IMG/VR virus record: IMGVR_UViG_3300023174_000226
Location: 1-52,875 of that record
Source: a virus
Lineage: Duplodnaviria > Caudoviricetes
DNA: 52,875 nt
Direction: 5' to 3' (one strand)
The translations under genes and the position numbers were made by a program. Below, one piece after another: positions 3,215 through 51,567 of this stretch; positions within the stretch are counted from its first letter, which is position 1; the number at the start of each line of letters is the position of its first letter. The notes beneath the pieces are model-generated. The model was not told where the DNA came from and made no database searches. It saw only the letters and a program-made list of their open reading frames with translations.

Positions 3215-6200
3215 ATGTCATCAATCTCCAACATCTATTCTGAAAAGATATTTGCACAGCATCCAATCGCCACATGGTCACTGGATGATTCAGTTGACTA
3301 TATCTCTTTGATATCAGATGCCACCAGAAATCTTAGTAGTGGCTGGACTATATCTTCTACGGATACAGCAACTTCCTATACTCCATCAACATCAGCACCG
3401 TTTGCATCAAGTGCAACAACTAAACTATTAAGTGCTGCTGGAAGTGGTTCAATAACAGCAACTAGTACAGCAACCTTTACAAACTCAACAACCTCATTTT
3501 GTATTGGATTTTATCTATATGTAGGTAGTTTAAACATAACAAGCGTAGATATTGGCTACAAGATTGGTGCATCTTCTCCAGTTTTTGCAACATACTATCC
3601 ATCTGTATATCAAGACTGGGCTTTTATTTCAAATACTTTTTTTACCAGCGTTACAGGTGCTAAAGTATATATTAAAATAAATTATTCTGGAACAGCGGTA
3701 GATAATGAATTTTGGATTAATGGATTAACGGTAGGGCATTTATCAGAAGAATTTAATCAATACTCTCTGGGTATTCAAACAACATCTTTAACAACTCTAT
3801 CATCAATAACAGGATTTACTTCACAAAAAGGTTATGAAACAAAAGACTATGGAAATAATCAATATAGTGCCTACTACTTGTCGGATGATAAAAAAATATT
3901 TGCAAGAGGTTCTACCATACCATTAGCGATGGGGTCAGATAAGTCTATATCATTTTCTTATGAAACATCTGGAACAACCTATCAACCAGCGTCAATGCTG
4001 TTTCCAGCATTTGGATTTTTAAATAAAAAAGGCAAGAATAAAGAATACACTTTTGAATTTTGGATAAAACTAAATTATCAAAAATGGACATTGCCAGACC
4101 AAGATGGTATAAGTAGAAATAAAATACTTGGACTAGCATCTGAAAAAAGTGGCAATGGGCTATATGTTTCTAATAACAGCATTATTTTACAACTTGGAGA
4201 CAAGATTGGGTATCACTATGTTGGATATTGGAATAGACCCATGTTGCTTCAAATTACATATAGTAAAAACTTTATAAAGTTATTTGTTAATGGTGAAGAT
4301 GCAATATCACTATCGCTAGAGTCAACTGACCTAGATACCCTTGCTACAGAATCATCACTAACAGACTGGATTGCAATTGGTTCAGAATATCAACAAATTC
4401 AAATAGACTCTGTATCAATATATCCTTATCAATTTTCAAACACACAAGCATTAGTAAATTTTGTCAGCGGCATCGGAACTAGAGTACCAGAAGACATAAA
4501 TTCACAGTATGACTCATCAACAGTTACAATTGACTATACAAAAGCAAACTATTCAAATGACTATAACTATCCAGAAACTGGTAAATGGAAACATGGTTTG
4601 TTAAGTAATTTTGTTGAAAAAAATAATGCCCTTTCTTCTCCAACATATTCACTACCTAACTTTATATTTACAGAAACCACATTTTCAAAAAATACTTTAG
4701 AAACAGCAAATACTGCTTTGCCTCCAACATATAATGAATTTAAATTAAAACCAATATCTACATATGATAAAACATATATAAGGTTTGACTCATTGAATGT
4801 TTTAAACGAAGCAGTAAAAGGTATCCACGCAATTTTAAAAGCACCATCAAGTGCAACCGAAAAACTTATTTTTAAATTTACAAATAAAAATACGAATAAC
4901 TATTTAAATATAACAACACAAAATAATAGCATATATTATAAATATAGTAATGATGCTGGTATAACAGAAACAACTCTTTCTGCTGCTACAACAACAATAA
5001 CAAGAGATGCAAACAATGTATTTTTTGTTGGAATAGATATAGATAAGTTTACAACAACTTATCCAGACGCAAATCTAAATAGTACTTTGTTTTCTAATCA
5101 AGATGATGTTATAGTTTATTTTGGTGGAGACGAAAATACTGCAAACACATATTTTTATGAAGAATCTGTTGTTAGGGTTTCATTCGATAATAAACGTAAT
5201 TTAAATAATTTTTCATCTCAAATTAATGCCAATGGTACTTTCATTGCCTTGCCAGCAATTTCTTGGTTATCTAAATATGACAATCTTTCAAGTTATTCAT
5301 TAATGTTTAATAAAGGTTTGGGCTTTGATATTGGTTCAGCGTGTTACTGGCAAGACTATATTCCGTTAACATTGCTTGCAAAGAAAGTGCTTGATGGTTC
5401 TAGTAATCAGGTTTACAATTTGTCATTTTTGCAATATAATATTGACTATACAAAAAATATACTATCATCTGGAACTGGAGTATCATTTTATATAAGTGAT
5501 GGTTCTGGGTTAAACAACTACATTACTTTCCAAGATATTACAACGTCTACAGGTCCCAATCTAGACCTATCATCTTTTGCAACAACTGTAGCATTAGATT
5601 CAAAAAACACAATTACTCCTTCAGGTGGTTGGTCAACAACAAAGTATGAAATAAATGACAGAACAATCATATACTTGCCACCATCTATAGATTTTACAAA
5701 ATATGCCATTGTTGTTCATTTAGATATACATCTTCCAACATCTATAATTAATCCAGTTCAAATAAAATATTTGCAGTTTGCCTCACAAGCCTTAAACACT
5801 GGAACATCTTTAAAAAATAAAATTGGAACTAAAACTGGAACTAGCATTACTCCATATTATTATACTGGTTCAGCATATGACTATACCCAAACAAATCCAT
5901 TTCTTATTGATAAACAAAGTAGTTCTTACCTAAACCTGACTCCACAATCTGGAATAAAATTAGTTGGAGATTTTACAAATGACAGGGGATTTTATGTTTC
6001 CATAAATGAAAATGCAACTGCAAACTACACACTAAGCGGAATGCAAATGTTTATTAATTATCAGTTCCCATTTACAAAAAATACAACTACAAGTAACTAT
6101 TTAGAATATCCAACACTTGGAACAATATTTTCAATAGAAACAAGAACAAAAACTATAAATTTTGTTATGGAAGCATTAGACACATCTCCAACACTATCAT

Positions 6201-6775
6201 CTTCACTAATAGCCTCAAACTCACAAAGAGTTAGATTATACACAACAACAAACTATTCATATTCTTCAGCCATCATAGATGAAAACGTATACTTTTATTG
6301 GAATGGTGAACTTGTAAAAGAAGCCACAATGACACTAAATGAGTGGGGTATTCTGGGGATTAATTTTATAGAACCACTAGATTTTAACTCATATACAGGC
6401 AAACTAGTAGTCAAATCACCAATATCTATTGACAATATATCTTTTTATTCATTATCTCAAAGCAGAATACTTAACAGCAAAAAATTAAGAACTTGGTTTA
6501 ATGTATTGAATCCAATCATTTCTAACAATACATCAAGTGCTCAATATACTTGGAACACTTGGAATAATGCTTCAGCCACTTGGTTAGATTTAAATACAAT
6601 GGGAGATAAGTCTAATCTTCCTGTTAGTCTTTCACAAATATATGACACATATGCTGGGGTTTCAAAAACAAACATATCAAATAATGAAAGCACTTCTGGA
6701 TTGACTATAACTGGTAAACATGGAGAAGTATTAGTAGGACTAATAAAACAATCAAGTATATACAGTGCCACATAA
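3215..6775 (+). CDS. Large beta-rich virion protein with LamG/ConA-like region
   Basis: 1186 aa, S/T/N-rich; YTFEFWIK...IKLFVNGE...IDSVSIY is LamG-like. Confidence 0.6.
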   Translation: MSSISNIYSEKIFAQHPIATWSLDDSVDYISLISDATRNLSSGWTISSTDTATSYTPSTSAPFASSATTKLLSAAGSGSITATSTATFTNSTTSFCIGFYLYVGSLNITSVDIGYKIGASSPVFATYYPSVYQDWAFISNTFFTSVTGAKVYIKINYSGTAVDNEFWINGLTVGHLSEEFNQYSLGIQTTSLTTLSSITGFTSQKGYETKDYGNNQYSAYYLSDDKKIFARGSTIPLAMGSDKSISFSYETSGTTYQPASMLFPAFGFLNKKGKNKEYTFEFWIKLNYQKWTLPDQDGISRNKILGLASEKSGNGLYVSNNSIILQLGDKIGYHYVGYWNRPMLLQITYSKNFIKLFVNGEDAISLSLESTDLDTLATESSLTDWIAIGSEYQQIQIDSVSIYPYQFSNTQALVNFVSGIGTRVPEDINSQYDSSTVTIDYTKANYSNDYNYPETGKWKHGLLSNFVEKNNALSSPTYSLPNFIFTETTFSKNTLETANTALPPTYNEFKLKPISTYDKTYIRFDSLNVLNEAVKGIHAILKAPSSATEKLIFKFTNKNTNNYLNITTQNNSIYYKYSNDAGITETTLSAATTTITRDANNVFFVGIDIDKFTTTYPDANLNSTLFSNQDDVIVYFGGDENTANTYFYEESVVRVSFDNKRNLNNFSSQINANGTFIALPAISWLSKYDNLSSYSLMFNKGLGFDIGSACYWQDYIPLTLLAKKVLDGSSNQVYNLSFLQYNIDYTKNILSSGTGVSFYISDGSGLNNYITFQDITTSTGPNLDLSSFATTVALDSKNTITPSGGWSTTKYEINDRTIIYLPPSIDFTKYAIVVHLDIHLPTSIINPVQIKYLQFASQALNTGTSLKNKIGTKTGTSITPYYYTGSAYDYTQTNPFLIDKQSSSYLNLTPQSGIKLVGDFTNDRGFYVSINENATANYTLSGMQMFINYQFPFTKNTTTSNYLEYPTLGTIFSIETRTKTINFVMEALDTSPTLSSSLIASNSQRVRLYTTTNYSYSSAIIDENVYFYWNGELVKEATMTLNEWGILGINFIEPLDFNSYTGKLVVKSPISIDNISFYSLSQSRILNSKKLRTWFNVLNPIISNNTSSAQYTWNTWNNASATWLDLNTMGDKSNLPVSLSQIYDTYAGVSKTNISNNESTSGLTITGKHGEVLVGLIKQSSIYSAT

Positions 6776-14564: not shown

Positions 14565-15299
14565 ATGGCAACTTATACAAGAGGAAACGCTGCTAACATC
14601 GTAGTCGGTGCTGCAGCAGTTTTTATTGGAAATTACGGTGTAAACGTAAACAGCACAATCCAGTCAGGTACTAACCCTGGTGGTGGTGCTCCAGATTTCG
14701 TAGAAGCAACGTCTTACAAGGATACCCTTGCAAACAACGTTAACTACACATCTGTAGGTTACACTAACAACGGTCTAGAACTATCATTCGACCCATCATT
14801 CGGTGAGGTAATGGTAGACCAAATTCTAGACGTAGCAAAGTTGTACAAGTCAGGTATGAAGGTAACTCTAAAGACTTCTCTAGCAGAAGCAACTTTGGAA
14901 AACTTGCTACTAGCACTTGCACAGCGTGGTTCTGTAAACCGTTACACTAACACTGCAACAACAGCCGCAGCAACAATTACATATACTCCAGGTACAAGCA
15001 CTGAAAACAGCACTGCACATGGTAAGTATATTGACTTGTTCTCAGGTGACCTAGGTGACTACCCAGTTGAGCGTTCGCTCATCGCAATTGGTGCTGGTCT
15101 ATCTAACATTGGTAACAATGCAACAGGTGTAGCAACAACTGACCAATCAGAACGTGTCTATGTCGCATATCGTGTTGTAAACATTAGCAACGTAACTGTC
15201 GCTGCAAAGCGTGATGCTGCAACTACATTTGATGTAGAGTTCCGTTTGCTCCCAGATGCAAATGGTGCTTACGGTAAAATCGTAGACCGCACATACTAA
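14565..15299 (+). CDS. Major tail tube protein
   Basis: NIVVGAAAVFI, VGYTNNGLELSF, LKTSLAEATLENL, FDVEFRLLPD; followed by a terminator. Confidence 0.85.
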   Translation: MATYTRGNAANIVVGAAAVFIGNYGVNVNSTIQSGTNPGGGAPDFVEATSYKDTLANNVNYTSVGYTNNGLELSFDPSFGEVMVDQILDVAKLYKSGMKVTLKTSLAEATLENLLLALAQRGSVNRYTNTATTAAATITYTPGTSTENSTAHGKYIDLFSGDLGDYPVERSLIAIGAGLSNIGNNATGVATTDQSERVYVAYRVVNISNVTVAAKRDAATTFDVEFRLLPDANGAYGKIVDRTY

Positions 15300-15325
15300 A
15301 AATTAAATAATAACTGAATACTAAT

Positions 15326-15361
15326 GAGGCTGCCCTGGGGATACCTGGGGCAGTTTCTTTT
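15326..15361 (+). terminator. Intrinsic terminator
   Basis: GAGGCTGCCCTGGG-gata-CCTGGGGCAGTTTC then TTTT. Confidence 0.85.
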
Positions 15362-15369
15362 GGTATAAT
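15361..15369 (+). promoter_or_regulatory. Extended -10, leaderless
   Basis: TGGTATAAT 5 nt before ATG 15375; no SD. Confidence 0.7.
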
Positions 15370-15374
15370 AGACT

Positions 15375-16091
15375 ATGCCTACTAATATATATGATACAAA
15401 ATACATTTACCTTATTGATGGAACAGAGTTAGAGGTTAGTCCATTAAAGATTAAATATTTAAAAGAATTTATGGAAGTATTTGAACCAATAAAAAATACT
15501 AAAAATGATGATGAGTCTATTAAAATACTTATTCATTGTATGAAAATAGCGATGAAACAATATTATCCTAAAATTAAAACAATTGAAGATGTTGAAGATA
15601 GTATGGATTTGCCAACAATTTATAAAGTTTTAGAAATTTCTGCTGGAATCAAAATGGGTCAGCCTACAGATAGTAGTATAGACAATAGTGTACAACAAAT
15701 ACCAGTAGCACCAACAGATAATGGTTCTTGGAAAACATTAGATTTGGCTAAACTAGAAGCAGAAATTTTTGTTCTTGGAATATGGAAAAACTTCGATGAA
15801 CTAGAATCAAACATATGTATGCCAGAATTAATGGCTATTCTTGAATCAAAAAGAGAATTAGACTATAATGAAAAGAAATTTCTTGCTGCTATGCAAGGTG
15901 TAGACCTTGATGAAGCCAGCGGTAAAAAAGAAGAAGACCCTTGGGAAGCAATGAAAGCCAGGGTAGCAGCACAAACTAGTGGTGTTGGCAATGGAGACCC
16001 TAATGATATAACAGCCTTGCAAGGAGTAAAAGCACAGCAAACAGGATTTGGCATAGGCATGGGTCTTGACTATCAAGTTGTTTCAAAATAG
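15375..16091 (+). CDS. Tail assembly chaperone, long (G-T-like) form
   Basis: Between tube and tape measure; N-terminal ~95 aa is paralogous to the next gene, plus a C-terminal extension. Confidence 0.75.
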   Translation: MPTNIYDTKYIYLIDGTELEVSPLKIKYLKEFMEVFEPIKNTKNDDESIKILIHCMKIAMKQYYPKIKTIEDVEDSMDLPTIYKVLEISAGIKMGQPTDSSIDNSVQQIPVAPTDNGSWKTLDLAKLEAEIFVLGIWKNFDELESNICMPELMAILESKRELDYNEKKFLAAMQGVDLDEASGKKEEDPWEAMKARVAAQTSGVGNGDPNDITALQGVKAQQTGFGIGMGLDYQVVSK

Positions 16092-16100
16092 ACTGTGTTA

Positions 16101-16109
16101 TGCTATAAT
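16101..16109 (+). promoter_or_regulatory. Extended -10 promoter
   Basis: TGCTATAAT; SD AAGGAGGA before ATG 16134. Confidence 0.7.
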
Positions 16110-16133
16110 TAATAAGAACCTTAAGGAGGATTC

Positions 16134-16457
16134 ATGTCTACAACAATTAACGAACCAAGAACTGTAGAACTACTGGACGGAACAAGTATTACTGTACGTC
16201 CATTGAAAATCTCTCTTCTACGTCCCTTTATGACAAAATTTGAGGGTATCGCAGAAGTAGCAGATAACAACGAGAAGTCTATGACACTTCTCATGGAATG
16301 TGTTCAGATTGCACTTCAGCAATTTGCTCCAGACCTAGCCAAGGATGCAAAGGCTCTAGAAGAACTTTTGGACCTACCAACCGTATACAAGATTGTTGAA
16401 GAAGCATCTGGTATTAAACTTAGTGAAGCCTCACTAATGGGTGGTTTAATCGGCTAA
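16134..16457 (+). CDS. Tail assembly chaperone, short (G-like) form
   Basis: 107 aa; shares LxDGT, PLKI, FM..FE, C..IA..Q, DLPT.YK and GIK with the 15375 ORF. Confidence 0.75.
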   Translation: MSTTINEPRTVELLDGTSITVRPLKISLLRPFMTKFEGIAEVADNNEKSMTLLMECVQIALQQFAPDLAKDAKALEELLDLPTVYKIVEEASGIKLSEASLMGGLIG

Positions 16458-16475: not shown

Positions 16476-19400
16476 ATGGCTGATATCAATTCCAATATAA
16501 AAGTTAATATAGATACGTCAGACGCTCTGGCACAACTAAAACTTTTACAGCAACAGATATCAGCCTTTCAGCAAGCAATGCGAAATGCAGGTGCACAAAA
16601 TGCTTCTGCTGCTGCTGCAATGCAGCAAAATCTTATAACCTCAATTAATGCTACTGGAAAATTCAGAGCCAACGTTCAAACAATAAAAACAAGTGCAGAA
16701 TCATTTACAGAATCTTTAGAAAAAAATAAATTTTCTATTGGAGAATACTTTAGATATGCTGGCGGTGCTTCAAAAACTTTCGGTAAATTGTTTAAATCAG
16801 AGTATGCAACTATAACCCAGGTAGCAAAAGAACGAGTAAAAGAACTACAAACCCAATACATCAAACTTGGTCGTGATGCCACAGGTGCTATGAAGGCTAT
16901 TGCTGTAAAGCCACTATCACTTGATATGACTAATCTTGCAACTAAAACACAGATTGCAGCACAAAAACAACAACTCTTTAATCAGTTAATGACACAGGGT
17001 TCTACAAGTCTTCTAAACTTTGGTAAAAATACTCAATGGGCTGGTCGCCAACTTATGGTTGGTTTTACAATCCCATTAACAATGATGGGTTCTGCTGCTG
17101 CTAAGGCATACATGCAAATTGAACAAGCATCTGTAAAGTTTAGACGTGTTTATGGTGACATGAATACAACTACAGAAGAAGCCAATAAGATGGTTAAGTC
17201 TGTACAAAGTCTTGCAAATGAATTTACAAAGTATGGTGTTGCAGTTGCAGATACTATGGATATGGCTGCTCAGGCAGCCGCTATGGGTAAAACTGGTGCA
17301 GACCTTATTGCACAAATAAATAATGCTGCAAAACTTTCTATCTTAGGTGGGGTAGACCAGACAAAGGCTTTAGAAACTACTATTAGTCTTACAAATGCTT
17401 TTGGAGTTGCAGCAGAAGATTTAGGTAAAAACATTGACTTCTTGAACGCAGTTGAAAACCAAACTACACTCAGTATTGATGATTTAACTACTGCTATTCC
17501 AAAGGCTGCCCCTGTTGTTAAACAACTTGGTGGAGATGTAAAAGATTTGGCATTCTTTATGACAGCAATGAAAGAAGGTGGAATTAACGCATCTGAAGGT
17601 GCTAACGCAATTAAATCTGGTTTGGCATCATTGATTAATCCATCAGAAAAAGCATCAAAATTTCTTCAAGGATTTGGTATCAATGTTAAAGGTATTGTTG
17701 AAGCAGATAAAGGTAATCTAAAGAAAACAGTTGTTGATTTTGCTAAAGCACTAGACACTCTTGACCCACTAAACCGTGCTCGTGCTATTGAACAAATGTT
17801 TGGAAAGTTCCAATTTTCCAGACTTTCAACATTGTTCCAAAACGTAATTGCCGAAGGTAGCCAAGCATCTCAAGTAGCAGAATTATCTAAAAACTCAGCA
17901 GAAGAATTAGCAATCTTGTCAGAACGAGAAATGAAAAAGATTTCAGATTCTCCAATGTTTAAATTTCAAAAATCTATGCAAGATATGCAAGCAAAACTTG
18001 CTCCAGTTGGAGAAGCATTCTTAAAGGCTGTAACACCAATTATTGAATTTGTAAGCAAGATTCTAGATGGTTTTAATAATCTGGGTGAAGGAACTAAAAA
18101 CTTTGTATCAATGTTAGTTTTAGCAGTAGCAGGTATTGGTCCTGTACTACTAATGACATTTGGTTTGATTGCAAACGGTGTAGCAAATATTATGAAACTA
18201 TTTACAAATATGAAAGGTTTCATTAATAAGACAACTAAGCCATCAGATATTCTTGGTGAACAAACTAGTTATATGACTACAGAACAGTTGAAGGGTGCAG
18301 CAGTTGCAGCATCTCTTGACCAAGCACATGCCAAACTTCGTCAAACATTTACCTCTGAAAAAGCAGCATTAGATGAATTAACTAGGTCATATAGACAAGC
18401 AGTAGAAGCCCAACAGCAATATTCTGGTGTTCCAGGAATACCAACAGGAAATCCAAATGCTGTTCCTAAAAGATATGCTAATGGTGTTTCTATGGTTCCT
18501 GGTCCAAGAGGTGCAGGAGATATTATTCCAGCCTTGCTGTCTCCAGGTGAAGCAGTTATACCAGCCAAACATGCACAAAAATATGCACCTGTAATTGCTG
18601 GTATGGTTGCTGGCAATCTTCCAGGATTTGAAGATGGAACTACTGGCGTTGGAATGCGTCAAAGTACTATTGGTCCACTTACTCAAAAACAAACAGAGGG
18701 TATGCTTAGAACTGGTAAATCACTTAAAGAGATTAGCGATGAAGTTTATGCTGGTCCATATGGAGCAGTTCCTCCAGAACACTATGTAAGACAGATTGAA
18801 CCAACAAGTGGGCACTCATTTCCTGCATTCCAAGTTGGAGGAATTTATGAAAAAGCAGACGGTACAAAGGTATTTGTAAAGCCACAGGTAGACCTTGTTT
18901 CAGCAATGGCAGAAGTTCGTGGAACTCAAATTGCAAGAGATGCTCATCAACTAATAACTCCACAACAAAAAATTGTTACAATGATGGACCCAACAGACCC
19001 AGAAGGAAAACGTAAGTTCATTGCACTTGAATCACAATTAAATGAACAGATTGCAAATATTTCTACATCATTTACAAAACAGCAATATATTAAACAACTT
19101 GTAGCATCTCTTCTTCGTGGAGATAAGGACCTTGGAATTGGTAATCTTGGTGGAGATATTCTTGCAGATGTTGGTACTGCAGGTGTTTTCCAAACTGCAT
19201 CTGGTAAGCGTAAACTTGGTGGCTCAATTAACTCTATGGAAGAACAAGCCATCATCAATCTTCTTGGTGTAAAGGGCGGTGCCAAGAGATTCTTTGCTGA
19301 ATCAACAGCAGAAATTGCTAAGAGTATGACACCTGCAGAATATGATGCCGCTATGAAGGCTGAAATTCAATCAGTTATGCCAAGACTTCAAACCACAATC

Positions 19401-22400
19401 GCTGGATTTGGAAACCTTAATCCAGAAGAAAAAGCGGCATACATGGCTATGCAGCAAAGACTTCAAGCAGGTATGGGTGTTGACTGGGGTAAATATCAAG
19501 CAATGCATTCTGCAGTAACTCCAAAGAAGTATGCTCTTGGTGGTATTGTTGGATATGATGGCGGAACCAATAACGTTAAGCATGAATCTGACTACACTCC
19601 ACAAGAAATTTATGAGTTGCTAAAAATTCAAGAAACTCATGCTTATGGCGAAATGAATATCAATGACCCAAAGGTTCAAGAACAACTAAAAAGAGTCTTT
19701 GCAGAATCTACTCCAGAAGACTTTAATAAGTTTAAAGTTCTTAGCAATCTTACTATAAGTTTGCCAGGTAAGTTGAATCAATTAATTAAAGAAACTAATA
19801 CTGGTGTAAGTGGACCAATATTTAGTCAAGCCTATAATGCTTTGCGTGGTAAATTAAGTAAAACTGCAAAAATGTCTGGTGTTAAAAATATGTCAGATGC
19901 TCAAATCCTTGAAGATATTATTGGAACAAGGTTTGCAGGAGAGTCATTAATTAAAGATTCAATATTTGCAGGAATAGTAGAGCAAACTATTAATGAGCAA
20001 ACTGCCAATACATCTGGTATTGGTGGTGCAGCAAATCTAATTTGGGAAAGAACAAAACAAGTTGGTACAGTTCGTCCTAAACGTGATGGTTTAGATGCAC
20101 CTAAATGGAATGATTTGATTCGAACAATGTTGCAAAATGATGAACTTGTTTTAGTTGCAGGAACCGATAAGGGATTCCCAGTTGCCCAAACTCCTTTTGG
20201 TGGTCGTTTTGGAAGAATTAAAGCAGATGGTATTGGTTCAAGTAAAACTGCCGAAGGACGTGCCCTTCGTAAATTAGCACAAGATGCAGCAAATGCTTGG
20301 GCTAGGGCAGGAAACAAATCAGCACCTTTACCTATTGTACAAGATAATAATGGAAATATGGTTCCACTAACTTGGAGAGACAATAGTGCAAAGCCAGGAA
20401 GTTTTTCAACAGATGATTTTCCTGCATATGATGATACAAGTAAAAAATATGCATCAGACTTATCTTTTGCCCCTGGAGGATTTGATGTTCTTAAAAATCT
20501 TAAATTCTTTGCTAAAGGTGGTGTTGTTCCTGGATATTCTGGAGGAACTTCAGGTGCAGTTCCAGCACCTCAAGAATTTTTACTTGCAAAACTTGGACAA
20601 TATCGTTCTCAAGTAGTTGGTTCAGATACTTATTCAAATGCCGCTGGCACAGCAACATATAGGGACAAGTCACTAGAAACATATGAGTCAGTTATTAGAC
20701 TTCATAGAGATGGACAATATACTGAAGCATATAAGAAAGCAATGAACCTATTTGAGTATCTTGCTTCTGTAGATGAAAAACGTGTAGTTCATCCAGGACT
20801 ACAAAAAACTGGTCTAAAAATGGAACAAGTTTATCCAGACCTATATTCATATGAAGATGCTATTGCTGCTTTTAAAAAGGGTGGCGGAATAGAAAAGGGT
20901 ATTGAGTGGGAGGAAACAGAGCCTATTCAACTTTCTAACGGTGGAATTATTCCTGGGTATGCTAAGGGAAGTTTTGGTATTCCTGGTATGGGACAAAAGA
21001 AGTCTTCATATTCTGATGCAGAACTAAAACACAACATTTTACTTGAACTAGTTGATTTAAAGAAACAAGGATTATCAGATGATGCAGTTATTCAATCAAT
21101 CAAATCTAATCCACAATTTGCTCTTGCATTAGCACAATCCAAAGAGGCTAGTTCTAACGGAAGAGAAAGACTAAATACAGCATCTATGGATAGGCTGATG
21201 CGTTTGAGAAGCGATGAGGCTCTTGATAATCAGATTGCTAGAAGTGCAGAGTATTTAGAACAACAGTCATTTGGGTATAAAGCAAAAAAGATAGCAAAGG
21301 CTGCCCCAGGCAAAATTGCAAATACTGCAAAGGGTGTAGCGTATGGTGCTGGAGCGTTGACAATGGCTGTTGGTTCAGCAATAGGTAAGACTGCAGCAAC
21401 TAACCCAGCAGGATTTAAGGCTATGACTAGTGGTTTAGGACAACTTGCAAAAATGGTTTTGGCAATGTTTGGACTTCATCTAAATAAGGGTGGAGTAATT
21501 CCAGGATATGCTAATGGTGTATTCTCAGTTCCAGGACCAAAGGGTGCTGGTGATGTAGTTCCTGCAATGCTGTCTCCTGGTGAGGCTGTTATTCCTGCTA
21601 ATCGTGCTGCTCAACACCGTGGACTAATTAAAGGAATGATTGCTGGTAATTTGCCAGGGTATGCAAAGGGAACTATAATTCCAGGATACGTTGATGGCAA
21701 AGATGAAGTTAAAAGAATACCAGGAATGCCAGCATCCGCAGTTACCGTTACTTCTTTCGATGCTGATAGTCAGGCTATGCTTGCAGAACAATCAAAAGTT
21801 GTTGCTTTAGAAGAAGCCTTAGTTGCAAAAAAGAAAGAAATAACTCGTTTAAGTCGTGAACAAATTGAAGAACAGATGGCTACTGAGGATAAGTCTTATA
21901 GAGAACTTATAGATAAACGAAGAGAATTTGCTGCAAAACTTGCTATGACTGATGAAGAAAGATTAAAGCAGCAGGAAAATGAAAAACGAATTCTTGAAAA
22001 AGAAGAAGTTTGGATGAATAAAAAGAATGTAGAAGAAAAGAAACAATCTGGTCTTTCTAAACTATTTACTAGAAGTAAGTTTACTGGAAAAGTTCAAGGT
22101 GCTATGTATGGTGCTACTGCTGCTGTTGGGGCAGTATCTGCTATGGGTGGTCCAATTGGTGAGGCTGCAGGTGCAGCACTTCCTGCTATTGGTGCAATGA
22201 CAGGTGCTATGTCTATGATTCCTGGTCCTGCTGGTATGGTTGTTGGTGGGTTAATGGCGGTAGCAACAATTTCAGCACAAGTAGATGCACATTTTAAAAA
22301 AATTAGAGAAGAATCCTATAACTTAGCACAGTCTATGGGTGCTGGCAATAAGGCAATTATGAAGTTTGCAGAATTTGCAAAAAAGGTTAGTGCTACTGAA

Positions 22401-25097
22401 ATAGTGGATAAACAAAGAGCAGAATCCTCTGGTCAATTTTTTAATATTGTTGCAGGTAAAAAAACATTTGGTCAATCTTTTATGGAGGGGGAATCTGGAA
22501 AAGGTATTTTAGAAAGTGTAAATGCATCGATAAAAAATGGTGGTACAGGAAAAGCATTAGAGCAAATGGCTCAACAACTATCTTCTGCAGTAGTTTCTGG
22601 AGTATTAACATCTGCACAAGCAAAGAGTGTTGCAGAAGCATTAGGTGCTAGATTAAAAAATCTTAATTTTGGAATAAAAGTTTCTGCAAGAATTAATGCT
22701 TTATTTGGTCCAAAAGGTGAAAATTTAGAAAAAGACCCAGTAAATACTAGAATTAATTTTACTAAAGGAATTGTTTCTGATTTTGTAAAAAATACTGAAC
22801 AAGGGGAATTTAAAAGTCAAGTTGTAGACGATACTTACATGGGAATAAAAGGAACAATGGTTCAATTAGTTCGCCGCAGTGCTGAAGAAAAAACAGCAAT
22901 AGGCGGTATGCTTGCAGCACAATATGAACAAATACCTCAAATTCAACAACAAGCATTAGATTCATTAGATTTACTTTATCAAAAAAGAATATCTGATGCA
23001 GAAGCAGCAGGAAAAACAGCAGAAGCAATTAGATTACAAAATGAATTTTTAGTACAACAACAAAAACTTTTAGAAAGAAATACTGCTCAAAGTTATCTTT
23101 CGTATGCCAAATTGGCAAAATTAAAAAAAGATAGTCCAGATGTCTATGACGCAGCAAAGAAAGCATCAGAAGAAGGATTTACAAAACATTTTGAAGGAAC
23201 TGGTAGAGAGGCAGAGGCTGTTATAGCAAAGAGTGCTATCGATAATCTTGGACCTGGAGCAACCGATACTCAAAGAATAACAATGAGGTCTGCAGTTACA
23301 TCCGACCAATTAGGTCTTGCTCAAGCAACAGATTTATCTAATATTTTAGGTCATACTGCTGAAGGTAATAAAAAAATTAGAGAAATGCTATTGGCAAGTC
23401 CAGTTATGGCAAATAGGGCAGCAACTTTTGCTGGAAATCTAAAAGATGAAGCAACTCAATATAAATTTTTAATGTCCATGGAAACAAAAGACCCTGCCAA
23501 AGCGGAAGCAACTTTGGATGCATTAGAATTATTTCAAAAAACAACTGGAATTTATGCAGACTCTGGGGATACAAAAATGGTAGAAATGATGTTAACTTTT
23601 GCTACAAATAATGAAGGTATCTTAAGTCAAATAAATACAGATATGAATGAGTTAGAAACTAATAAAGTAATTACAATTGATTTGATTGAGAAGTATGTTG
23701 GTGCAGATGTTGCTGGTTCAATGGGAGGTCAAAAAAGTTTTAACCTTTTGAACTATAAAACTAAAAATGAAAGAATGACATTTACTACAGAATATACAAC
23801 ATTGTATAGAATGTATGCTGCTGGAGATACAGCACTATTGGCAAGGGTTAATACTTGGCTTGCTAAACCAGAAAATAAAGGTAAGACACAGGCTGACTAT
23901 TTTGCTACTCAGGCAGATTTAACTGTTCAAACTAGAACAGCAGATTTCGCCTTTGACCCTAATGCTAGTAATGATGATAATAGTAATCAAAAAGAATCTT
24001 CTTGGTTAGACCAGTATGTTAAAACTGCTAGAGATGCTGGTAAAGCAACACAAGCATTAACAACTGGTTTTGCAGATTCTGGTGCTGCACTTAAAAAGTT
24101 TGGAGCAGCAGCACCTAAACTTAATGGTTTGTTTACACAACTAAAAGCAGCAGGTGCAAGCAATGATATTATTCAGGCTGCTCTTGGTGGAGATGAAGCA
24201 ACAACTAAAGCACTTATCGATACTAAAACTGGAAAACTTAAAGCAGGTGCCAAGCAAATTTTGGCAGGTATAAATAAAGCCATTCTACAACAAAAAGAAA
24301 TTGACTGGCTAGGACTTAATGCTGCAGAAAGAAAACAAAAATATAATGATATGTATAGTGCAGACCTCGAAGTACTCAAGATTTCTGAAGATGAAATTAA
24401 TAAACGTTATGACGATAGAATTAAAGCACTTGATACAATCAATACTCTTAATGAAAGAAATTCTGCACAACAACAAAGTACTTTAACCCTTGCTGATGCT
24501 TTGGCTAAAGGTGACATTGCTGCTGCTGCTCGTGCTGCACTAGATAAAAGAAAGCAAGACACTTCATTTGCTTTAGAGGACCAAAAGAAAAACCTTGAAC
24601 TTGCTAGAACATTAGAACTTTCAAAACTTGTTGTTGACATTAATGGTGTTCAAATGACTAGGGCTGAGGTAGAAGAAAAAATTAGAATCAATGCGGAAGC
24701 AATTACTAAGGCTAAAGCAGCAGAGTTAGAACTTGGTATTCGTATTGGTCAACTTGCAGAAAGAGAATATAGTGCAGTTGTAAATCCAGTTAAAAAGGCT
24801 ACTGGTGGATTGATTATGCCAAAGGGATATGCCTATGGTGGCGGTATTTATGGAACTGACACAGTACCTGCTATGCTTACCCCAGGAGAATTTGTGGTAA
24901 AGAAGTCATCAGTAGACGCTATTGGAATAGATAAACTTAATACTATAAACTCTGGAAACATGCCATCTGATTCAGTGTATAATTATAGTATCAATGTTAA
25001 TGTGGCATCAGGTGCTGACGCTAATGACATTGCTAAGGCAGTTATGACACAGATTAGACAGATAGAATCCCAGAGGGTTAGGAGCAATACTTACTAA
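16476..25097 (+). CDS. Tape measure protein with internal cargo cassettes
   Basis: 2873 aa; TP901-like core (DFLNAVENQT, EGGINASEGANAIKSGL), hydrophobic segments, C-terminal DTVPAMLTPGEFV. Confidence 0.93.
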   Translation: MADINSNIKVNIDTSDALAQLKLLQQQISAFQQAMRNAGAQNASAAAAMQQNLITSINATGKFRANVQTIKTSAESFTESLEKNKFSIGEYFRYAGGASKTFGKLFKSEYATITQVAKERVKELQTQYIKLGRDATGAMKAIAVKPLSLDMTNLATKTQIAAQKQQLFNQLMTQGSTSLLNFGKNTQWAGRQLMVGFTIPLTMMGSAAAKAYMQIEQASVKFRRVYGDMNTTTEEANKMVKSVQSLANEFTKYGVAVADTMDMAAQAAAMGKTGADLIAQINNAAKLSILGGVDQTKALETTISLTNAFGVAAEDLGKNIDFLNAVENQTTLSIDDLTTAIPKAAPVVKQLGGDVKDLAFFMTAMKEGGINASEGANAIKSGLASLINPSEKASKFLQGFGINVKGIVEADKGNLKKTVVDFAKALDTLDPLNRARAIEQMFGKFQFSRLSTLFQNVIAEGSQASQVAELSKNSAEELAILSEREMKKISDSPMFKFQKSMQDMQAKLAPVGEAFLKAVTPIIEFVSKILDGFNNLGEGTKNFVSMLVLAVAGIGPVLLMTFGLIANGVANIMKLFTNMKGFINKTTKPSDILGEQTSYMTTEQLKGAAVAASLDQAHAKLRQTFTSEKAALDELTRSYRQAVEAQQQYSGVPGIPTGNPNAVPKRYANGVSMVPGPRGAGDIIPALLSPGEAVIPAKHAQKYAPVIAGMVAGNLPGFEDGTTGVGMRQSTIGPLTQKQTEGMLRTGKSLKEISDEVYAGPYGAVPPEHYVRQIEPTSGHSFPAFQVGGIYEKADGTKVFVKPQVDLVSAMAEVRGTQIARDAHQLITPQQKIVTMMDPTDPEGKRKFIALESQLNEQIANISTSFTKQQYIKQLVASLLRGDKDLGIGNLGGDILADVGTAGVFQTASGKRKLGGSINSMEEQAIINLLGVKGGAKRFFAESTAEIAKSMTPAEYDAAMKAEIQSVMPRLQTTIAGFGNLNPEEKAAYMAMQQRLQAGMGVDWGKYQAMHSAVTPKKYALGGIVGYDGGTNNVKHESDYTPQEIYELLKIQETHAYGEMNINDPKVQEQLKRVFAESTPEDFNKFKVLSNLTISLPGKLNQLIKETNTGVSGPIFSQAYNALRGKLSKTAKMSGVKNMSDAQILEDIIGTRFAGESLIKDSIFAGIVEQTINEQTANTSGIGGAANLIWERTKQVGTVRPKRDGLDAPKWNDLIRTMLQNDELVLVAGTDKGFPVAQTPFGGRFGRIKADGIGSSKTAEGRALRKLAQDAANAWARAGNKSAPLPIVQDNNGNMVPLTWRDNSAKPGSFSTDDFPAYDDTSKKYASDLSFAPGGFDVLKNLKFFAKGGVVPGYSGGTSGAVPAPQEFLLAKLGQYRSQVVGSDTYSNAAGTATYRDKSLETYESVIRLHRDGQYTEAYKKAMNLFEYLASVDEKRVVHPGLQKTGLKMEQVYPDLYSYEDAIAAFKKGGGIEKGIEWEETEPIQLSNGGIIPGYAKGSFGIPGMGQKKSSYSDAELKHNILLELVDLKKQGLSDDAVIQSIKSNPQFALALAQSKEASSNGRERLNTASMDRLMRLRSDEALDNQIARSAEYLEQQSFGYKAKKIAKAAPGKIANTAKGVAYGAGALTMAVGSAIGKTAATNPAGFKAMTSGLGQLAKMVLAMFGLHLNKGGVIPGYANGVFSVPGPKGAGDVVPAMLSPGEAVIPANRAAQHRGLIKGMIAGNLPGYAKGTIIPGYVDGKDEVKRIPGMPASAVTVTSFDADSQAMLAEQSKVVALEEALVAKKKEITRLSREQIEEQMATEDKSYRELIDKRREFAAKLAMTDEERLKQQENEKRILEKEEVWMNKKNVEEKKQSGLSKLFTRSKFTGKVQGAMYGATAAVGAVSAMGGPIGEAAGAALPAIGAMTGAMSMIPGPAGMVVGGLMAVATISAQVDAHFKKIREESYNLAQSMGAGNKAIMKFAEFAKKVSATEIVDKQRAESSGQFFNIVAGKKTFGQSFMEGESGKGILESVNASIKNGGTGKALEQMAQQLSSAVVSGVLTSAQAKSVAEALGARLKNLNFGIKVSARINALFGPKGENLEKDPVNTRINFTKGIVSDFVKNTEQGEFKSQVVDDTYMGIKGTMVQLVRRSAEEKTAIGGMLAAQYEQIPQIQQQALDSLDLLYQKRISDAEAAGKTAEAIRLQNEFLVQQQKLLERNTAQSYLSYAKLAKLKKDSPDVYDAAKKASEEGFTKHFEGTGREAEAVIAKSAIDNLGPGATDTQRITMRSAVTSDQLGLAQATDLSNILGHTAEGNKKIREMLLASPVMANRAATFAGNLKDEATQYKFLMSMETKDPAKAEATLDALELFQKTTGIYADSGDTKMVEMMLTFATNNEGILSQINTDMNELETNKVITIDLIEKYVGADVAGSMGGQKSFNLLNYKTKNERMTFTTEYTTLYRMYAAGDTALLARVNTWLAKPENKGKTQADYFATQADLTVQTRTADFAFDPNASNDDNSNQKESSWLDQYVKTARDAGKATQALTTGFADSGAALKKFGAAAPKLNGLFTQLKAAGASNDIIQAALGGDEATTKALIDTKTGKLKAGAKQILAGINKAILQQKEIDWLGLNAAERKQKYNDMYSADLEVLKISEDEINKRYDDRIKALDTINTLNERNSAQQQSTLTLADALAKGDIAAAARAALDKRKQDTSFALEDQKKNLELARTLELSKLVVDINGVQMTRAEVEEKIRINAEAITKAKAAELELGIRIGQLAEREYSAVVNPVKKATGGLIMPKGYAYGGGIYGTDTVPAMLTPGEFVVKKSSVDAIGIDKLNTINSGNMPSDSVYNYSINVNVASGADANDIAKAVMTQIRQIESQRVRSNTY
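18474..18638 (+). repeat. 55-aa internal repeat, copy 1
   Basis: YANGVSMVPGPRGAGDIIPALLSPGEAVIPA...AGNLPGFEDG; 36/55 identical to copy 2 by hand count. Confidence 0.9.
21507..21671 (+). repeat. 55-aa internal repeat, copy 2
   Basis: YANGVFSVPGPKGAGDVVPAMLSPGEAVIPA...AGNLPGYAKG. Confidence 0.9.
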
Positions 25098-48093: not shown

Positions 48094-50034
48094 ATTAATA
48101 ACAAAACCTCAAGATTTATACTAGCAATATTTTTAGCCTTTTCCTGTTTATTTTTTCCATCAACAGCCTCTGCAGAAACAAGGGCTGAGTATGATGCAGT
48201 TGTAGCAGAAGCACAGGCTCTAGTTGACGCTACCAAAACCGCTTTGACAGTTGCTCAAGAAGCATACCAGACAGCCTTGAATGAAAAGACTACAATAGAT
48301 TCCACGGTAGAGTCAAATAAAACAATTTTAGATAATGTAATTCTAGATGTTCAAAGTAAGCAATTGCTGGTAGATAAAGCACAAGTAGCCTTAGATTTGG
48401 CTAGAGAAGACTACAATACAAAATTAATTTCAGACCCTAACTGGATTAGACCTGACAAAGAAGTCACACAAACCATTGATGTTCCATATACAGTTCAAGT
48501 TCCATATACAGAGTTAGTTCCAAGAACAGAACTTGTACCGAGAACAATCCTAGTTCCTAATACAAGGATGGAGTCTTATTTAGATTATGAGCCAGTGGAA
48601 GTCACAACTCTAGTTCCAGGTGGACTTACAGCAACTTCTTACAACAGACAGGGATATAACAATGCCCCACCACTACCAACAGAAACAGAAACACCACTAT
48701 CAACTAAGAATGTTCCTAACATTGATTTTCAATGGGGCAGTGGTTTAGTTTTAAACTCTGGAAAGGCTGAAGATGTTTTAGTAAAATTTGAAGGTAACCT
48801 CATGGTTCCACAAGATGGATGGTATAGTTTTTATGCTCCAGGAGATGACGGAGTTAAGTTAACAATTGCTGGCATGAGCCTTATCAATGATTGGCGTGAC
48901 AAAGGTGGAGGTGGCAGCACTTCACAAGAAGTATGGATTAGAGCAGGTATTTTCTATCCAACTACACTATACTATTATGAAAATGGTGGTGGAGCATGGG
49001 TACAACTTTATTCAAAAATTTCTGGTGGTAGTATGCAAATTGTTCCTGCATCATGGTTTGGAGAAAGAACAGTAACAGAAATAGTATATCAACCAGTTGT
49101 AAAGTACTATGAGGTAACTTATTACACAGAAGAAACAGTTTACGATGAGGTAGTTGTCTATGATGAAATAACTTTTTATAGAGAAGAAACTAGATATAGA
49201 AAAGAAGATATCATTATTATTGTTCCAGATGAGGATGCTACTGCCCCACTAATCAATGACCCAGGATTGCTGTTGGTTGTTGGCATAGCACAAAATAACT
49301 TAGATGAAAAACAATCTACTTTGTTATTTGCAATATCAGATAGGGAGAAACTGCAACAGGATTATGAGTCATCTTTGTTAGTTCAAACAGAAAAAGCAGG
49401 TATAATTGAAGTAGCATCTCAGGATGTAATAACAAAACAGGAGGAATTAGTTGCAGTCCAACAAGAACTTGACTCCATTCCACCTTACGAAGAGCCAGCA
49501 CCTACACCTACGGAGACCAAGGAACCTGTTGAAAAGCCAACAGAAGTTATCCCAGAACCGCTACCAGACCCAGAGCCGCCAGTGTCCCCCGAACCCAATC
49601 AACCTGAGTTACCAGTAGATGTAGCCACGGTAGACCCACAATCACTTTCAAATGAACAAGTAGCAGAACTTATATCTGTAGCAAATGAAATTCTAAATAA
49701 TTCAGAACAAGGCTCACCAGAATATGAACAGGCTCTTGACGCTCTATTTGTAGCAGCCCAAGCAGATGACATTGTAATCTCTGAAGAACTTGCAGCCATT
49801 CCAGGAGCAGCAGCATTGGTTGGTGCAATTAACTTTATGGGTAACGTTGGTTCTGACATGTCTCCAAAAGTAAGAGAAGAATCTAAAAAGATTGTTGTTA
49901 CAGCAGTTGTTGCTGTTGGAGCAGCAGTCAACGCAGCAACAGGAGCAGCACTTTCTGCAGCAGCACCATCAGCCGCAGCATCTGCATCAGCAGGTGGCTC
50001 AGGTGGAACATCAAGTAGAAGGAGGAACGATTAA
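48094..50034 (+). CDS. Exported, C-terminally anchored PA14-domain protein (probable ATT start)
   Basis: Frame is open upstream of 48244 and encodes a signal peptide. PA14 motifs NIDFQWG, KFEG, DDGVKL, INDW, YYENGGGA. Pro-rich linker, hydrophobic tail, RRR. Confidence 0.82.
   Translation: MNNKTSRFILAIFLAFSCLFFPSTASAETRAEYDAVVAEAQALVDATKTALTVAQEAYQTALNEKTTIDSTVESNKTILDNVILDVQSKQLLVDKAQVALDLAREDYNTKLISDPNWIRPDKEVTQTIDVPYTVQVPYTELVPRTELVPRTILVPNTRMESYLDYEPVEVTTLVPGGLTATSYNRQGYNNAPPLPTETETPLSTKNVPNIDFQWGSGLVLNSGKAEDVLVKFEGNLMVPQDGWYSFYAPGDDGVKLTIAGMSLINDWRDKGGGGSTSQEVWIRAGIFYPTTLYYYENGGGAWVQLYSKISGGSMQIVPASWFGERTVTEIVYQPVVKYYEVTYYTEETVYDEVVVYDEITFYREETRYRKEDIIIIVPDEDATAPLINDPGLLLVVGIAQNNLDEKQSTLLFAISDREKLQQDYESSLLVQTEKAGIIEVASQDVITKQEELVAVQQELDSIPPYEEPAPTPTETKEPVEKPTEVIPEPLPDPEPPVSPEPNQPELPVDVATVDPQSLSNEQVAELISVANEILNNSEQGSPEYEQALDALFVAAQADDIVISEELAAIPGAAALVGAINFMGNVGSDMSPKVREESKKIVVTAVVAVGAAVNAATGAALSAAAPSAAASASAGGSGGTSSRRRND
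48481..48558 (+). repeat. 18-nt (6-aa) tandem repeat
   Basis: VPYTVQ VPYTEL VPRTEL VPRTIL VP; GTTCCATATACAG occurs twice. Confidence 0.85.
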
Positions 50035-50812: not shown

Positions 50813-50885
50813 TGGGCATTAACTCAGTTGGCAGAGTGTTCGACTGTTAATCGAAATGTCCCTGGTTCGAACCCAGGATGCCCAG
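50813..50885 (+). tRNA. tRNA-Asn(GTT)
   Basis: Acceptor TGGGCAT/ATGCCCA, anticodon arm TTCGA-ctGTTaa-TCGAA, T arm CCTGG-TTCGAAC-CCAGG; no encoded CCA. Confidence 0.95.
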
Positions 50886-50982
50886 CAGAGACCAGACACG
50901 CAGACTTAGATTCGGTGGCTTAACAGAAATACTAGTAAAGACTGTTACAGATGTTGTTCCTATCTGGGTTGTCAAGGAGCAT
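50886..50982 (+). ncRNA. Candidate structured RNA between the tRNAs
   Basis: Hand-found helices including a possible pseudoknot; no ORF. Confidence 0.35.
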
Positions 50983-51054
50983 GCCACCTTAACTCAGCGG
51001 TAGAGTGCCATACTTGTAATATGGAGGTCAACAGTTCAAATCTGTTAGGTGGCT
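50983..51054 (+). tRNA. tRNA-Thr(TGT)
   Basis: Acceptor GCCACCT/AGGTGGC, anticodon arm CCATA-ctTGTaa-TATGG, T arm AACAG-TTCAAAT-CTGTT; no encoded CCA. Confidence 0.95.
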
Positions 51055-51062
51055 CCGATGGA

Positions 51063-51071: not shown

Positions 51072-51120
51072 AGTATTACTATGAACATTCATAGAATACA
51101 TCTTGAAAGGAAGTATTATA

Positions 51121-51567
51121 ATGACAGAAAAAGTTGCAGTTTATAAAGAACCATTTCCAAAGGCAAAGCGTGGAGATGGCTTTAAGAACATGGCTTCATA
51201 CCGTAAGCACCCACACCGTGGTGTTGACTGGTCAGTAGCCGCACATAGTCCAATTAAGGGAATTACTGGTGGACATGTTATGGTAACAAAGTGGACAGAC
51301 GTTCTTGGAAACATTGTTATTCAGTCTACATATGACAAGCATTTCATTCTTTATGCACACCTTGCAAAGCCATCACCTCTAAAGGTTGGCGATGAAGTTG
51401 TTGCAGGAGTGACAGTGATTGGTGAAGTAGGTGGCGGTAAGGATACACCTAGCGGTACAGCCAGTACTGGGGCACATCTCCACGTCACATATGGAACAGT
51501 CCAGGACCTAGTATCAGCAGACATCAGCAAACTTGCTGACCTGTTTGCAAAACTAGACGGAAAGTAA
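51121..51567 (+). CDS. M23 family peptidase (endolysin candidate)
   Basis: HRGVD, YAHL, STGAHLH. Confidence 0.88.
   Translation: MTEKVAVYKEPFPKAKRGDGFKNMASYRKHPHRGVDWSVAAHSPIKGITGGHVMVTKWTDVLGNIVIQSTYDKHFILYAHLAKPSPLKVGDEVVAGVTVIGEVGGGKDTPSGTASTGAHLHVTYGTVQDLVSADISKLADLFAKLDGK

Follow-up and report, generated by a model that had tools for sequence, protein, structure and literature searches.

A 52,875-base stretch of viral DNA, the virus record IMGVR_UViG_3300023174_000226 (estimated completeness 49%; hereafter the window), encodes a tape measure protein (TMP) that carries a conserved kinase-fold domain at amino acids (aa) 734-1016. We regard the presence of a real conserved domain of this fold as practically certain. 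Judging from its structural model, the best overall explanation, which we favour with modest confidence, is that this domain is a self-contained protein-kinase-like phosphotransferase delivered to the host. The parts of this explanation differ in strength: catalytic activity as a phosphotransferase is probable on the model, and delivery to and action on the host, argued by analogy from TMP biology, have about an even chance.

An earlier reading of the sequence without database searches (the sequence-only reading) had placed a kinase-like domain inside the tape measure, and the identity of the gene bore this out. PF10145 (Pfam) matched aa 246-443 of the product (E 1.6e-24), TIGR01760 matched at 2.3e-31, and 12 PHROG TMP families matched, the best being phrog_10030 (1.3e-99). 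The gene also occupies the syntenic position of a TMP among tail genes, between open reading frames (ORFs) in the chaperone position and the distal tail genes, and its product is very long and helical, as expected of a phage tail TMP. The protein is laid out as follows.

16476..25097, + strand: TMP gene (P0001), one uninterrupted frame of 2873 aa
aa 1-530: conserved TMP N-terminus
18093..18203, + strand: strongly hydrophobic segment, aa 540-576 (Kyte-Doolittle 19-aa window, maximum 2.39)
18492..18638, + strand: motif A copy 1, aa 673-721 (VPGPxGAGDxxPAxLSPGEAVIPA...GNLPGF), immediately preceding the kinase
18675..19523, + strand: kinase-fold domain, aa 734-1016 (conserved core ~745-1016; hidden Markov model envelope 734-1015, E 1e-126)
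19566..20516, + strand: module 2, aa 1031-1347, globular (AlphaFold2 pLDDT 92.9, pTM 0.84)
20550..21488, + strand: modules 3 and 4, aa 1359-1488 and 1501-1671
21525..21671, + strand: motif A copy 2, aa 1684-1732, which ends the cargo cassette
aa 1733-2785: long helical body
24831..25094, + strand: C-terminal region with motif A copy 3 (GTDTVPAMLTPGEFV), aa 2786-2873

Linkers of the form GG[IV][IV]PGY divide the modules at aa 1348, 1489 and 1672; these linkers and motif A were located by regular expressions and coordinates. The hydrophobic segment at aa 540-576, upstream of the cassette, is a putative membrane-inserting part of the protein, and a weaker second hydrophobic segment was found at aa 1914-1932 (Kyte-Doolittle).

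The translation of 16476-25097 (+) contains GGIYEKADGTKVFVK, AMAE, SLLRGDKDLGIGNL and LADVG in the order that the sequence-only reading had described. Its residue numbers K802, D885, N890 and D898 agreed exactly with the nucleotide coordinates (D885, nt 19128-19130; N890, 19143-19145; D898, 19167-19169), and the His position of DxHxxN is indeed Gly (Gly887). The spacing from D885 to N890 is DxxxxN. That reading had set the borders of the domain at aa ~722-1016. The conserved core begins further in, near aa 734-745, and model residues 1-10 had a predicted local distance difference test (pLDDT) score below 50.

We then examined the relatives of the domain. An exhaustive phmmer search with aa 722-1016 as the query against 1.84 billion representative proteins returned 169 proteins at E<=1e-3, of which 135 reached E<=1e-30; almost all were 2000-4400 aa long. 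Conservation was counted in 137 segments covering more than 200 query positions; they came from the 150 relatives listed of the 169, the other 13 being shorter fragments that were left out. These segments averaged ~50% identity to the query, and the residues named by the sequence-only reading were almost invariant (96-100%). The kinase elements are listed below, with fractions referring to the 137 segments.

18810..18842, + strand: Gly/Ser-rich loop between beta1 and beta2, with G779, S781 and G789 (each 0.96)
18879..18881, + strand: K802, the beta3 lysine (VFVKP; 0.96), in strand 77-83 of the model
18912..18914, + strand: E813, the alphaC glutamate (AMAE; 0.99), in helix 86-101 of the model
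19116..19145, + strand: catalytic loop R881-G-D883-K-D885-L-G-I-G-N890, following helix 147-160 of the model
19167..19175, + strand: D898-V-G900, the DFG equivalent (D898 1.00, G900 0.98), after short strands 170-175

Within the catalytic loop the fractions were 0.96 for R881 and D883, 0.99 for D885 and L886, and 1.00 for N890; Q874 was also conserved in all segments (1.00). The residues of the Gly/Ser loop, which the model places between strands 51-55 and 68-71, were invariant in a 53-sequence alignment, and K802 was invariant in both MAFFT alignments (53 and 40 sequences), each of which gave the same invariant set. The complete catalytic set of the protein-kinase-like (PKL) fold, namely the beta3 Lys, the alphaC Glu, DxxxxN and the Asp of DxG, is therefore present, as placed by the secondary structure of the model. 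The ratio of nonsynonymous to synonymous substitution rates (dN/dS) of the domain was 0.11-0.29 in 11 of 11 related IMG/VR loci. A filters-off hmmsearch of the 182 six-frame ORFs found no second kinase copy in the window (next best E 1.4).

The structure of the domain was predicted with AlphaFold2 (AF2), using as input a 40-sequence subset of the 150 relatives that combined short fragments and diverse full-length proteins. The model had a pLDDT of 91.9 and a predicted template modelling score (pTM) of 0.89. It consists of strands 51-55, 68-71 and 77-83, helix 86-101, strands 110-116 and 126-133, helix 147-160 and a helical region at 200-291. The elements follow the kinase order: beta1, the Gly/Ser loop, beta2, beta3 with K802, alphaC with E813, beta4, beta5 and a helix (147-160), after which come the R-G-D-K-D-L-x3-N loop, two short strands, D-V-G and five C-lobe helices. 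The model thus has the bilobal PKL architecture of a five-stranded N-lobe with alphaC and a helical C-lobe.

We compared the model with 48,161 representative solved chains by VIA-align. Fourteen chains scored Z>=8, and the best 50 rows were all kinase-fold phosphotransferases. The top match was CotH (5jda; Z 11.4, root-mean-square deviation (rmsd) 4.2 A over 220 residues, model 39-286), followed by MavQ (7m7a, 10.1), PI4KIIalpha (9.4 for 4hnd and 9.0 for 4pla) and CtkA (3akj, 9.2). Further matches were Fam20C (8.9), HipA (4pu3, 8.7), HipT (7ab3, 8.5), ATM (8.4), Vps34 (8.3), PI4KIIIbeta (8.2), actin-fragmin kinase (8.2) and 5k98 (7.8); lower rows among the best 50 included WaaP, APH and macrolide phosphotransferases, Bud32 (7.2-6.0) and RIO (7.0-6.5). 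As a control, module 2 was modelled likewise (pLDDT 92.9) and reached only Z 3.5. The model and the structure searches together indicated that the predicted fold is kinase-like, as the sequence-only reading had proposed.

In the ESM Atlas, unnamed clusters scored 0.95, and LepB_N, PI3_PI4_kinase and HipA_2 scored 0.91 each; we treat these as leads only. BFVD gave 10 matches at E<=1e-3 (1.9e-5 to 1e-3), all to proteins of 614-1479 aa. They included 'ADP-ribosyltransferase' proteins of uncultured Caudovirales and of Mycobacterium phage Onyinye (1340 aa), proteins of the Gordonia phages GodonK and Sixama and of the haloarchaeal virus HHTV-1, and a 'PI 3-/4-kinase catalytic domain' protein. A tblastn search found no sequence-level link between the kinase domain and these fold relatives. 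Being found in cultured actinophages and haloarchaeal tailed viruses, they could be experimentally tractable stand-ins.

The distribution of the domain was examined next. Relatives of the kinase domain are encoded by 260 IMG/VR contigs; by tblastn, the 50,697 deposited phage records yielded no match to the domain (E<=1e-5 and E<=10), and a divergent member (P0139) also gave no tblastn match at E<=1e-3 in these records. A search with TMP aa 1-530 returned 4922 relatives at E<=1e-20, of which the best 120 (at least 69% identical) were examined as sister TMPs. The kinase module was present in 64 of these and absent from 56, and it is therefore swappable cargo, optional and movable, not part of the ruler proper. 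Its start varies among TMPs (near aa 359, 722, 1250, 2198 or 2857), and the median TMP length was 3046 aa with the kinase and 2689 aa without it.

A cargo cassette spans aa 673-1732; the kinase is its first module and the only one that is widely conserved. Among 150 kinase-bearing proteins, the TMP N-terminus was common to 110 and the C-terminus to 117; module 2 was found in 8, module 3 in 1 and module 4 in 2. Among the 260 collected TMPs, these modules were found in 32, 3 and 2, respectively. Two copies of motif A bracket the cassette, and the same motif ends the TMP (DxxPAMLxPGExV...). The kinase starts 25-75 aa after motif A in 35 of the 64 kinase-bearing sister TMPs, and kinase-bearing TMPs have more motif A copies than kinase-less ones; the copies could be recombination joints or processing sites. 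Modules 3 and 4 had no family match in NCBIfam or PADLOC. Module 2 had no convincing structural neighbour: the best PDB match (Z 3.5, 88 aa) was to the ATP-cone region of a ribonucleotide reductase, and the best BFVD match had E 0.15. In 25 sequences of module 2, 13 residues were invariant (H25, N61, T63, P67, N71, Q72, G80, K96, E116, G120, D131, R170 and Y288), pointing to a further enzyme or binding module.

According to the precomputed Pfam annotation of the 120 closest TMPs, 26 contain a HAD class-B acid-phosphatase domain (PF03767), the consensus of which keeps an intact FDIDDT motif. The kinase was present in all 26 HAD-bearing TMPs, and HAD was found in 0 of the 56 kinase-less ones. 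As most HAD-bearing TMPs are nearest relatives, their relatedness confounds this association. HAD-bearing relatives include P0151, P0152, P0003, P0005, P0009 and P0186; the phosphatase directly follows the kinase in P0009 and P0186 and lies 250-400 aa downstream in the closest relatives. The TMP of the window has no HAD phosphatase by Pfam, and the unrelated module 3 takes its place. The cargo repertoire of sister TMPs is diverse: LysM or glycine-zipper domains occur in others, and a kinase-less TMP of 2129 aa (P0227) has, at its C-terminal end, a domain of the inositol-monophosphatase family (PF00459, 6.4e-14).

If the domain is a delivered phosphotransferase, infection might proceed as follows. 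The TMP would be stored in the tail lumen with its kinase module not fully folded, and it would leave the virion first at infection. Its hydrophobic parts would enter the membrane, the kinase would fold on the cytoplasmic side, and it would then draw on the ATP of the cell and phosphorylate a host protein or a membrane lipid before phage gene expression. A delivered effector, which the sequence-only reading saw as possibly retuning the host, is plausible given an ejected carrier protein, the optional presence of the module (64 of 120) and fold relatives in large phage proteins. The anti-defence role that the sequence-only reading had suggested is possible.

Several points weigh against this explanation. 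The fold is a prediction, and the catalytic residues are placed by the secondary structure of the model. The VIA-align alignments were at rmsd 4-6 A with 7-15% identity. Foldseek against PDB gave 0 matches at E<=1e-3 (best 3.3e-3, TM 0.16-0.35); among the matches listed, all rows were kinases, pseudokinases or SelO. At the sequence level, the domain had no match in Pfam, PHROG, NCBIfam, PADLOC or the PDB sequences and profile, and hhalign probabilities were 0.2% against CotH and 0.2% against HipA. Nearly half of the closest TMPs (56 of 120) do without the module. The lumen of a siphovirus tube is ~4 nm wide, and three folded 30-kDa domains should be too large for it, so the modules would have to be stored unfolded or removed before assembly. 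Finally, ATP is available only in the cytoplasm, and the cytoplasmic position of the inserted module is assumed.

The sequence searches also bear on family membership. The sequence-only reading had called the domain HipA/PI3-PI4K-like. This held for the fold, with neighbours at Z 8.7-10.1 and CotH best at 11.4; it did not hold for the sequence family, since no family model matched. The CotH model PF08757 gave no hmmscan match to the domain at E<=1 or, at E<=10, to any of 16 members searched, and no six-frame match in the window at E<=0.01. The HipA model PF07804 and the PI3/PI4-kinase model PF00454 matched neither the domain nor any of the 16 members, and the DRHxxN loop of the latter family is absent. 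For hhalign, the 137-sequence family was compared with 11 CotH domains and with 14 HipA proteins, both from actinobacterial genomes, and with HipA the alphaC stretch alone paired. An NCBIfam ATP-grasp match to the domain (13 bits against a cut-off of 300) was taken as noise, and megablast of the whole TMP gene returned nothing. Because neither a sequence library nor hhalign gave a match, the domain is a new sequence family of known fold, with profile-profile comparison covering CotH and HipA. It resembles the atypical kinases of the CotH / PI4KII / HipA structural class and is a member of none of those families.

We weighed four other explanations of the domain. It could be an assembly kinase that acts in the producer cell on the TMP or on tail or virion proteins and is no effector in the next host. 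CotH, the best structural neighbour (Z 11.4), phosphorylates structural spore-coat proteins during coat assembly; ATP is certainly available in the producer cell, and a folded domain too big for the tube favours action before packaging. However, the 56 of 120 closest TMPs without the module share the same N- and C-terminal parts, which indicates that assembly does not need it, and the likeness to CotH is one of fold only (hhalign 0.2%), just 1.3 Z above the lipid kinase MavQ; we consider this explanation unlikely. The domain could instead be a lipid or small-molecule kinase that modifies an envelope lipid or sugar, for example actinobacterial phosphatidylinositol, where the TMP enters the membrane. 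Actinobacteria make phosphatidylinositol, and the closest cultured relatives are Streptomyces phages. MavQ (10.1), PI4KIIalpha (9.4 and 9.0), Vps34 (8.3) and PI4KIIIbeta (8.2) are among the top VIA-align rows, with WaaP, APH and macrolide phosphotransferases lower down, and the nearest named ESM Atlas clusters are LepB_N, PI3_PI4_kinase and HipA_2 (0.91 each). A hydrophobic segment lies 170 aa upstream of the domain, and all 26 TMPs with a HAD phosphatase carry the kinase, compared with none among the 56 kinase-less TMPs. Yet the protein kinases CotH, CtkA, Fam20C, HipA and HipT score equally or better, PF00454 does not match, the His of DRH is replaced by Gly887, the host is only inferred and the co-occurrence with HAD is confounded by relatedness. 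This explanation seems rather improbable to us.

The kinase fold might also serve another chemistry, either AMPylation/UMPylation as in SelO/YdiU or an ATPase switch as in RIO/Bud32, since YdiU/SelO, RIO1, RIO2 and Bud32 were among the structural matches. RIO (7.0-6.5) and Bud32 (7.2-6.0) rank below the true kinases, though, YdiU appeared only among weak Foldseek rows, and the complete K/E/D/N/D set suits phosphotransfer, so that we think such a chemistry very unlikely. An inactive relic or structural spacer, adding only length or binding surface, is the least credible of the four, with hardly any probability. Its appeal lies in the dependence of tail length on TMP length, given in the part of PMC1796659 that we cite, and in the ~360 aa by which kinase-bearing TMPs are longer (median). 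Against it stand near-invariance exactly at the catalytic residues at ~50% overall identity, which a spacer would not keep, the dN/dS of 0.11-0.29 and the fast divergence of the neighbouring modules (of 260 TMPs, 32 have module 2, 3 have module 3 and 2 have module 4).

A bolder version of the lipid-kinase idea can be formulated, and we hold it to be a long shot. Here the TMP would be a programmable delivery scaffold, the kinase a membrane-lipid kinase that rewrites head groups, and HAD its partner or counter-enzyme. If true, the phage would bring a phospho-switch that works on the host envelope within seconds of adsorption, before gene expression, with a lipid substrate such as actinobacterial phosphatidylinositol or polyprenol at the entry site.

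Returning to the delivered phosphotransferase, we compared it with known systems. CotH from Bacillus cereus (5jda; PF08757) shares the atypical protein-kinase-like fold at Z 11.4 but only 9% identity, with no PF08757 match and an hhalign probability of 0.2%; it is a free-standing spore-coat enzyme, whereas the present domain is part of a phage TMP. PI4KIIalpha, MavQ and Vps34 (PF00454; Z 8.3-10.1) have the same D-x4-N spacing of the catalytic loop and a DxG motif. They differ in the His of DRHxxN, which is Gly887 here, and in their lipid-kinase accessory domains, which the present domain does not have. HipA and HipT (PF07804) and CtkA (Z 7.8-9.2) are small bacterial kinases with host-cell proteins as targets; unlike HipA and HipT, the present domain has no PF07804 match (hhalign 0.2%) and no antitoxin context.

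Polyvalent proteins, which are predicted to enter the host with DNA, carry kinase domains, and the T7 protein kinase is their functional precedent, as stated in the portions of Iyer et al. (2017; PMC5512222) considered here. As in those portions, a kinase domain sits in a large multidomain phage protein, and the BFVD matches in large phage proteins fit this idea. The same portions define the polyvalent kinases by loss of the whole C-terminal subdomain, whereas the present model keeps a five-helix C-lobe (200-291), which sets it apart from that group; the carrier here is a TMP in place of a MuF- or portal-linked head protein. The term 'tape measure' occurs 0 times in PMC5512222. A parallel for an optional catalytic module in an actinobacteriophage TMP acting at entry is the peptidoglycan-hydrolase motif in the TMP of mycobacteriophage TM4, going by the relevant section of PMC1796659. 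TMP hydrolase modules act on the cell wall from the outer side and do so without ATP; a kinase depends on ATP and so has to be in the cytoplasm. TMP ejection and the refolding of globular TMP-like domains after they leave the lumen are discussed in a section of PMC13277306, and the N4 virion RNA polymerase enters the cell with phage DNA according to an excerpt of PMC13434306. Full-text literature searches turned up no publication on a TMP with a kinase and none on TMPs of phages of freshwater actinobacteria (Nanopelagicales). Three papers (PMC7824862, PMC8876498 and PMC9341999) were, in the passages retrieved, unrelated to a TMP kinase. An ATP-dependent kinase in a TMP would, if true, add a signalling or modifying enzyme to the co-injected set and make the TMP a cargo vehicle. 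The domain adds a new sequence family to those of the kinase fold, and its motif-bracketed cassette is a design from nature for putting foreign domains into phage tails.

Among cultured phages, the nearest are those of Streptomyces. The DnaE-like polymerase of BillNye is 55.7% identical, and the TMP N-terminus is ~29% identical to that of the Streptomyces phages Wofford or Mildred21. Because these are the nearest cultured relatives, an actinobacterial host can be inferred, and the GC content of the window (30-42%) argues for one that differs from Streptomyces. The window contained no WhiB above the cut-off. The only match among genome contigs was an 85-kb contig of a metagenome-assembled genome (L082; 41-44% GC) labelled 'uncultured Bifidobacterium sp.', with a TMP kinase domain 76% identical. 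We read it as a probable phage contig binned into that genome and did not take Bifidobacterium as a clue to the host.

The gene content of the window is that of a large siphovirus-type phage, with portal, protease, major head protein and tail genes, and it further includes a DnaB-like helicase, a primase, a DnaE-like polymerase and a ribonucleotide reductase. The genes immediately before the TMP are as follows.

14565..16457, + strand: upstream tail genes, comprising an Ig-domain protein and two phrog_10504 ORFs (PHROG matches)

From its position, the Ig-domain protein is likely the major tail protein. The two adjacent ORFs at 15375-16091 and 16134-16457, immediately upstream of the TMP, both match phrog_10504 and occupy the position of tail assembly chaperones, a function suggested by position; the former has an additional C-terminal part, phrog_10474. 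An ORF at 3215-6775 (1186 aa), just upstream of the portal gene, had no Pfam or PHROG match and falls in the stretch of lowest GC content (30% at 4001-6000, compared with 32-42% in the other 2-kb windows). Towards the other end of the record are a 596-aa protein with a PA14 domain (48244-50034), two tRNA genes, Asn-GTT and Thr-TGT (50813-51056), and an M23 peptidase of 154 aa (51103-51567), a probable lysin.

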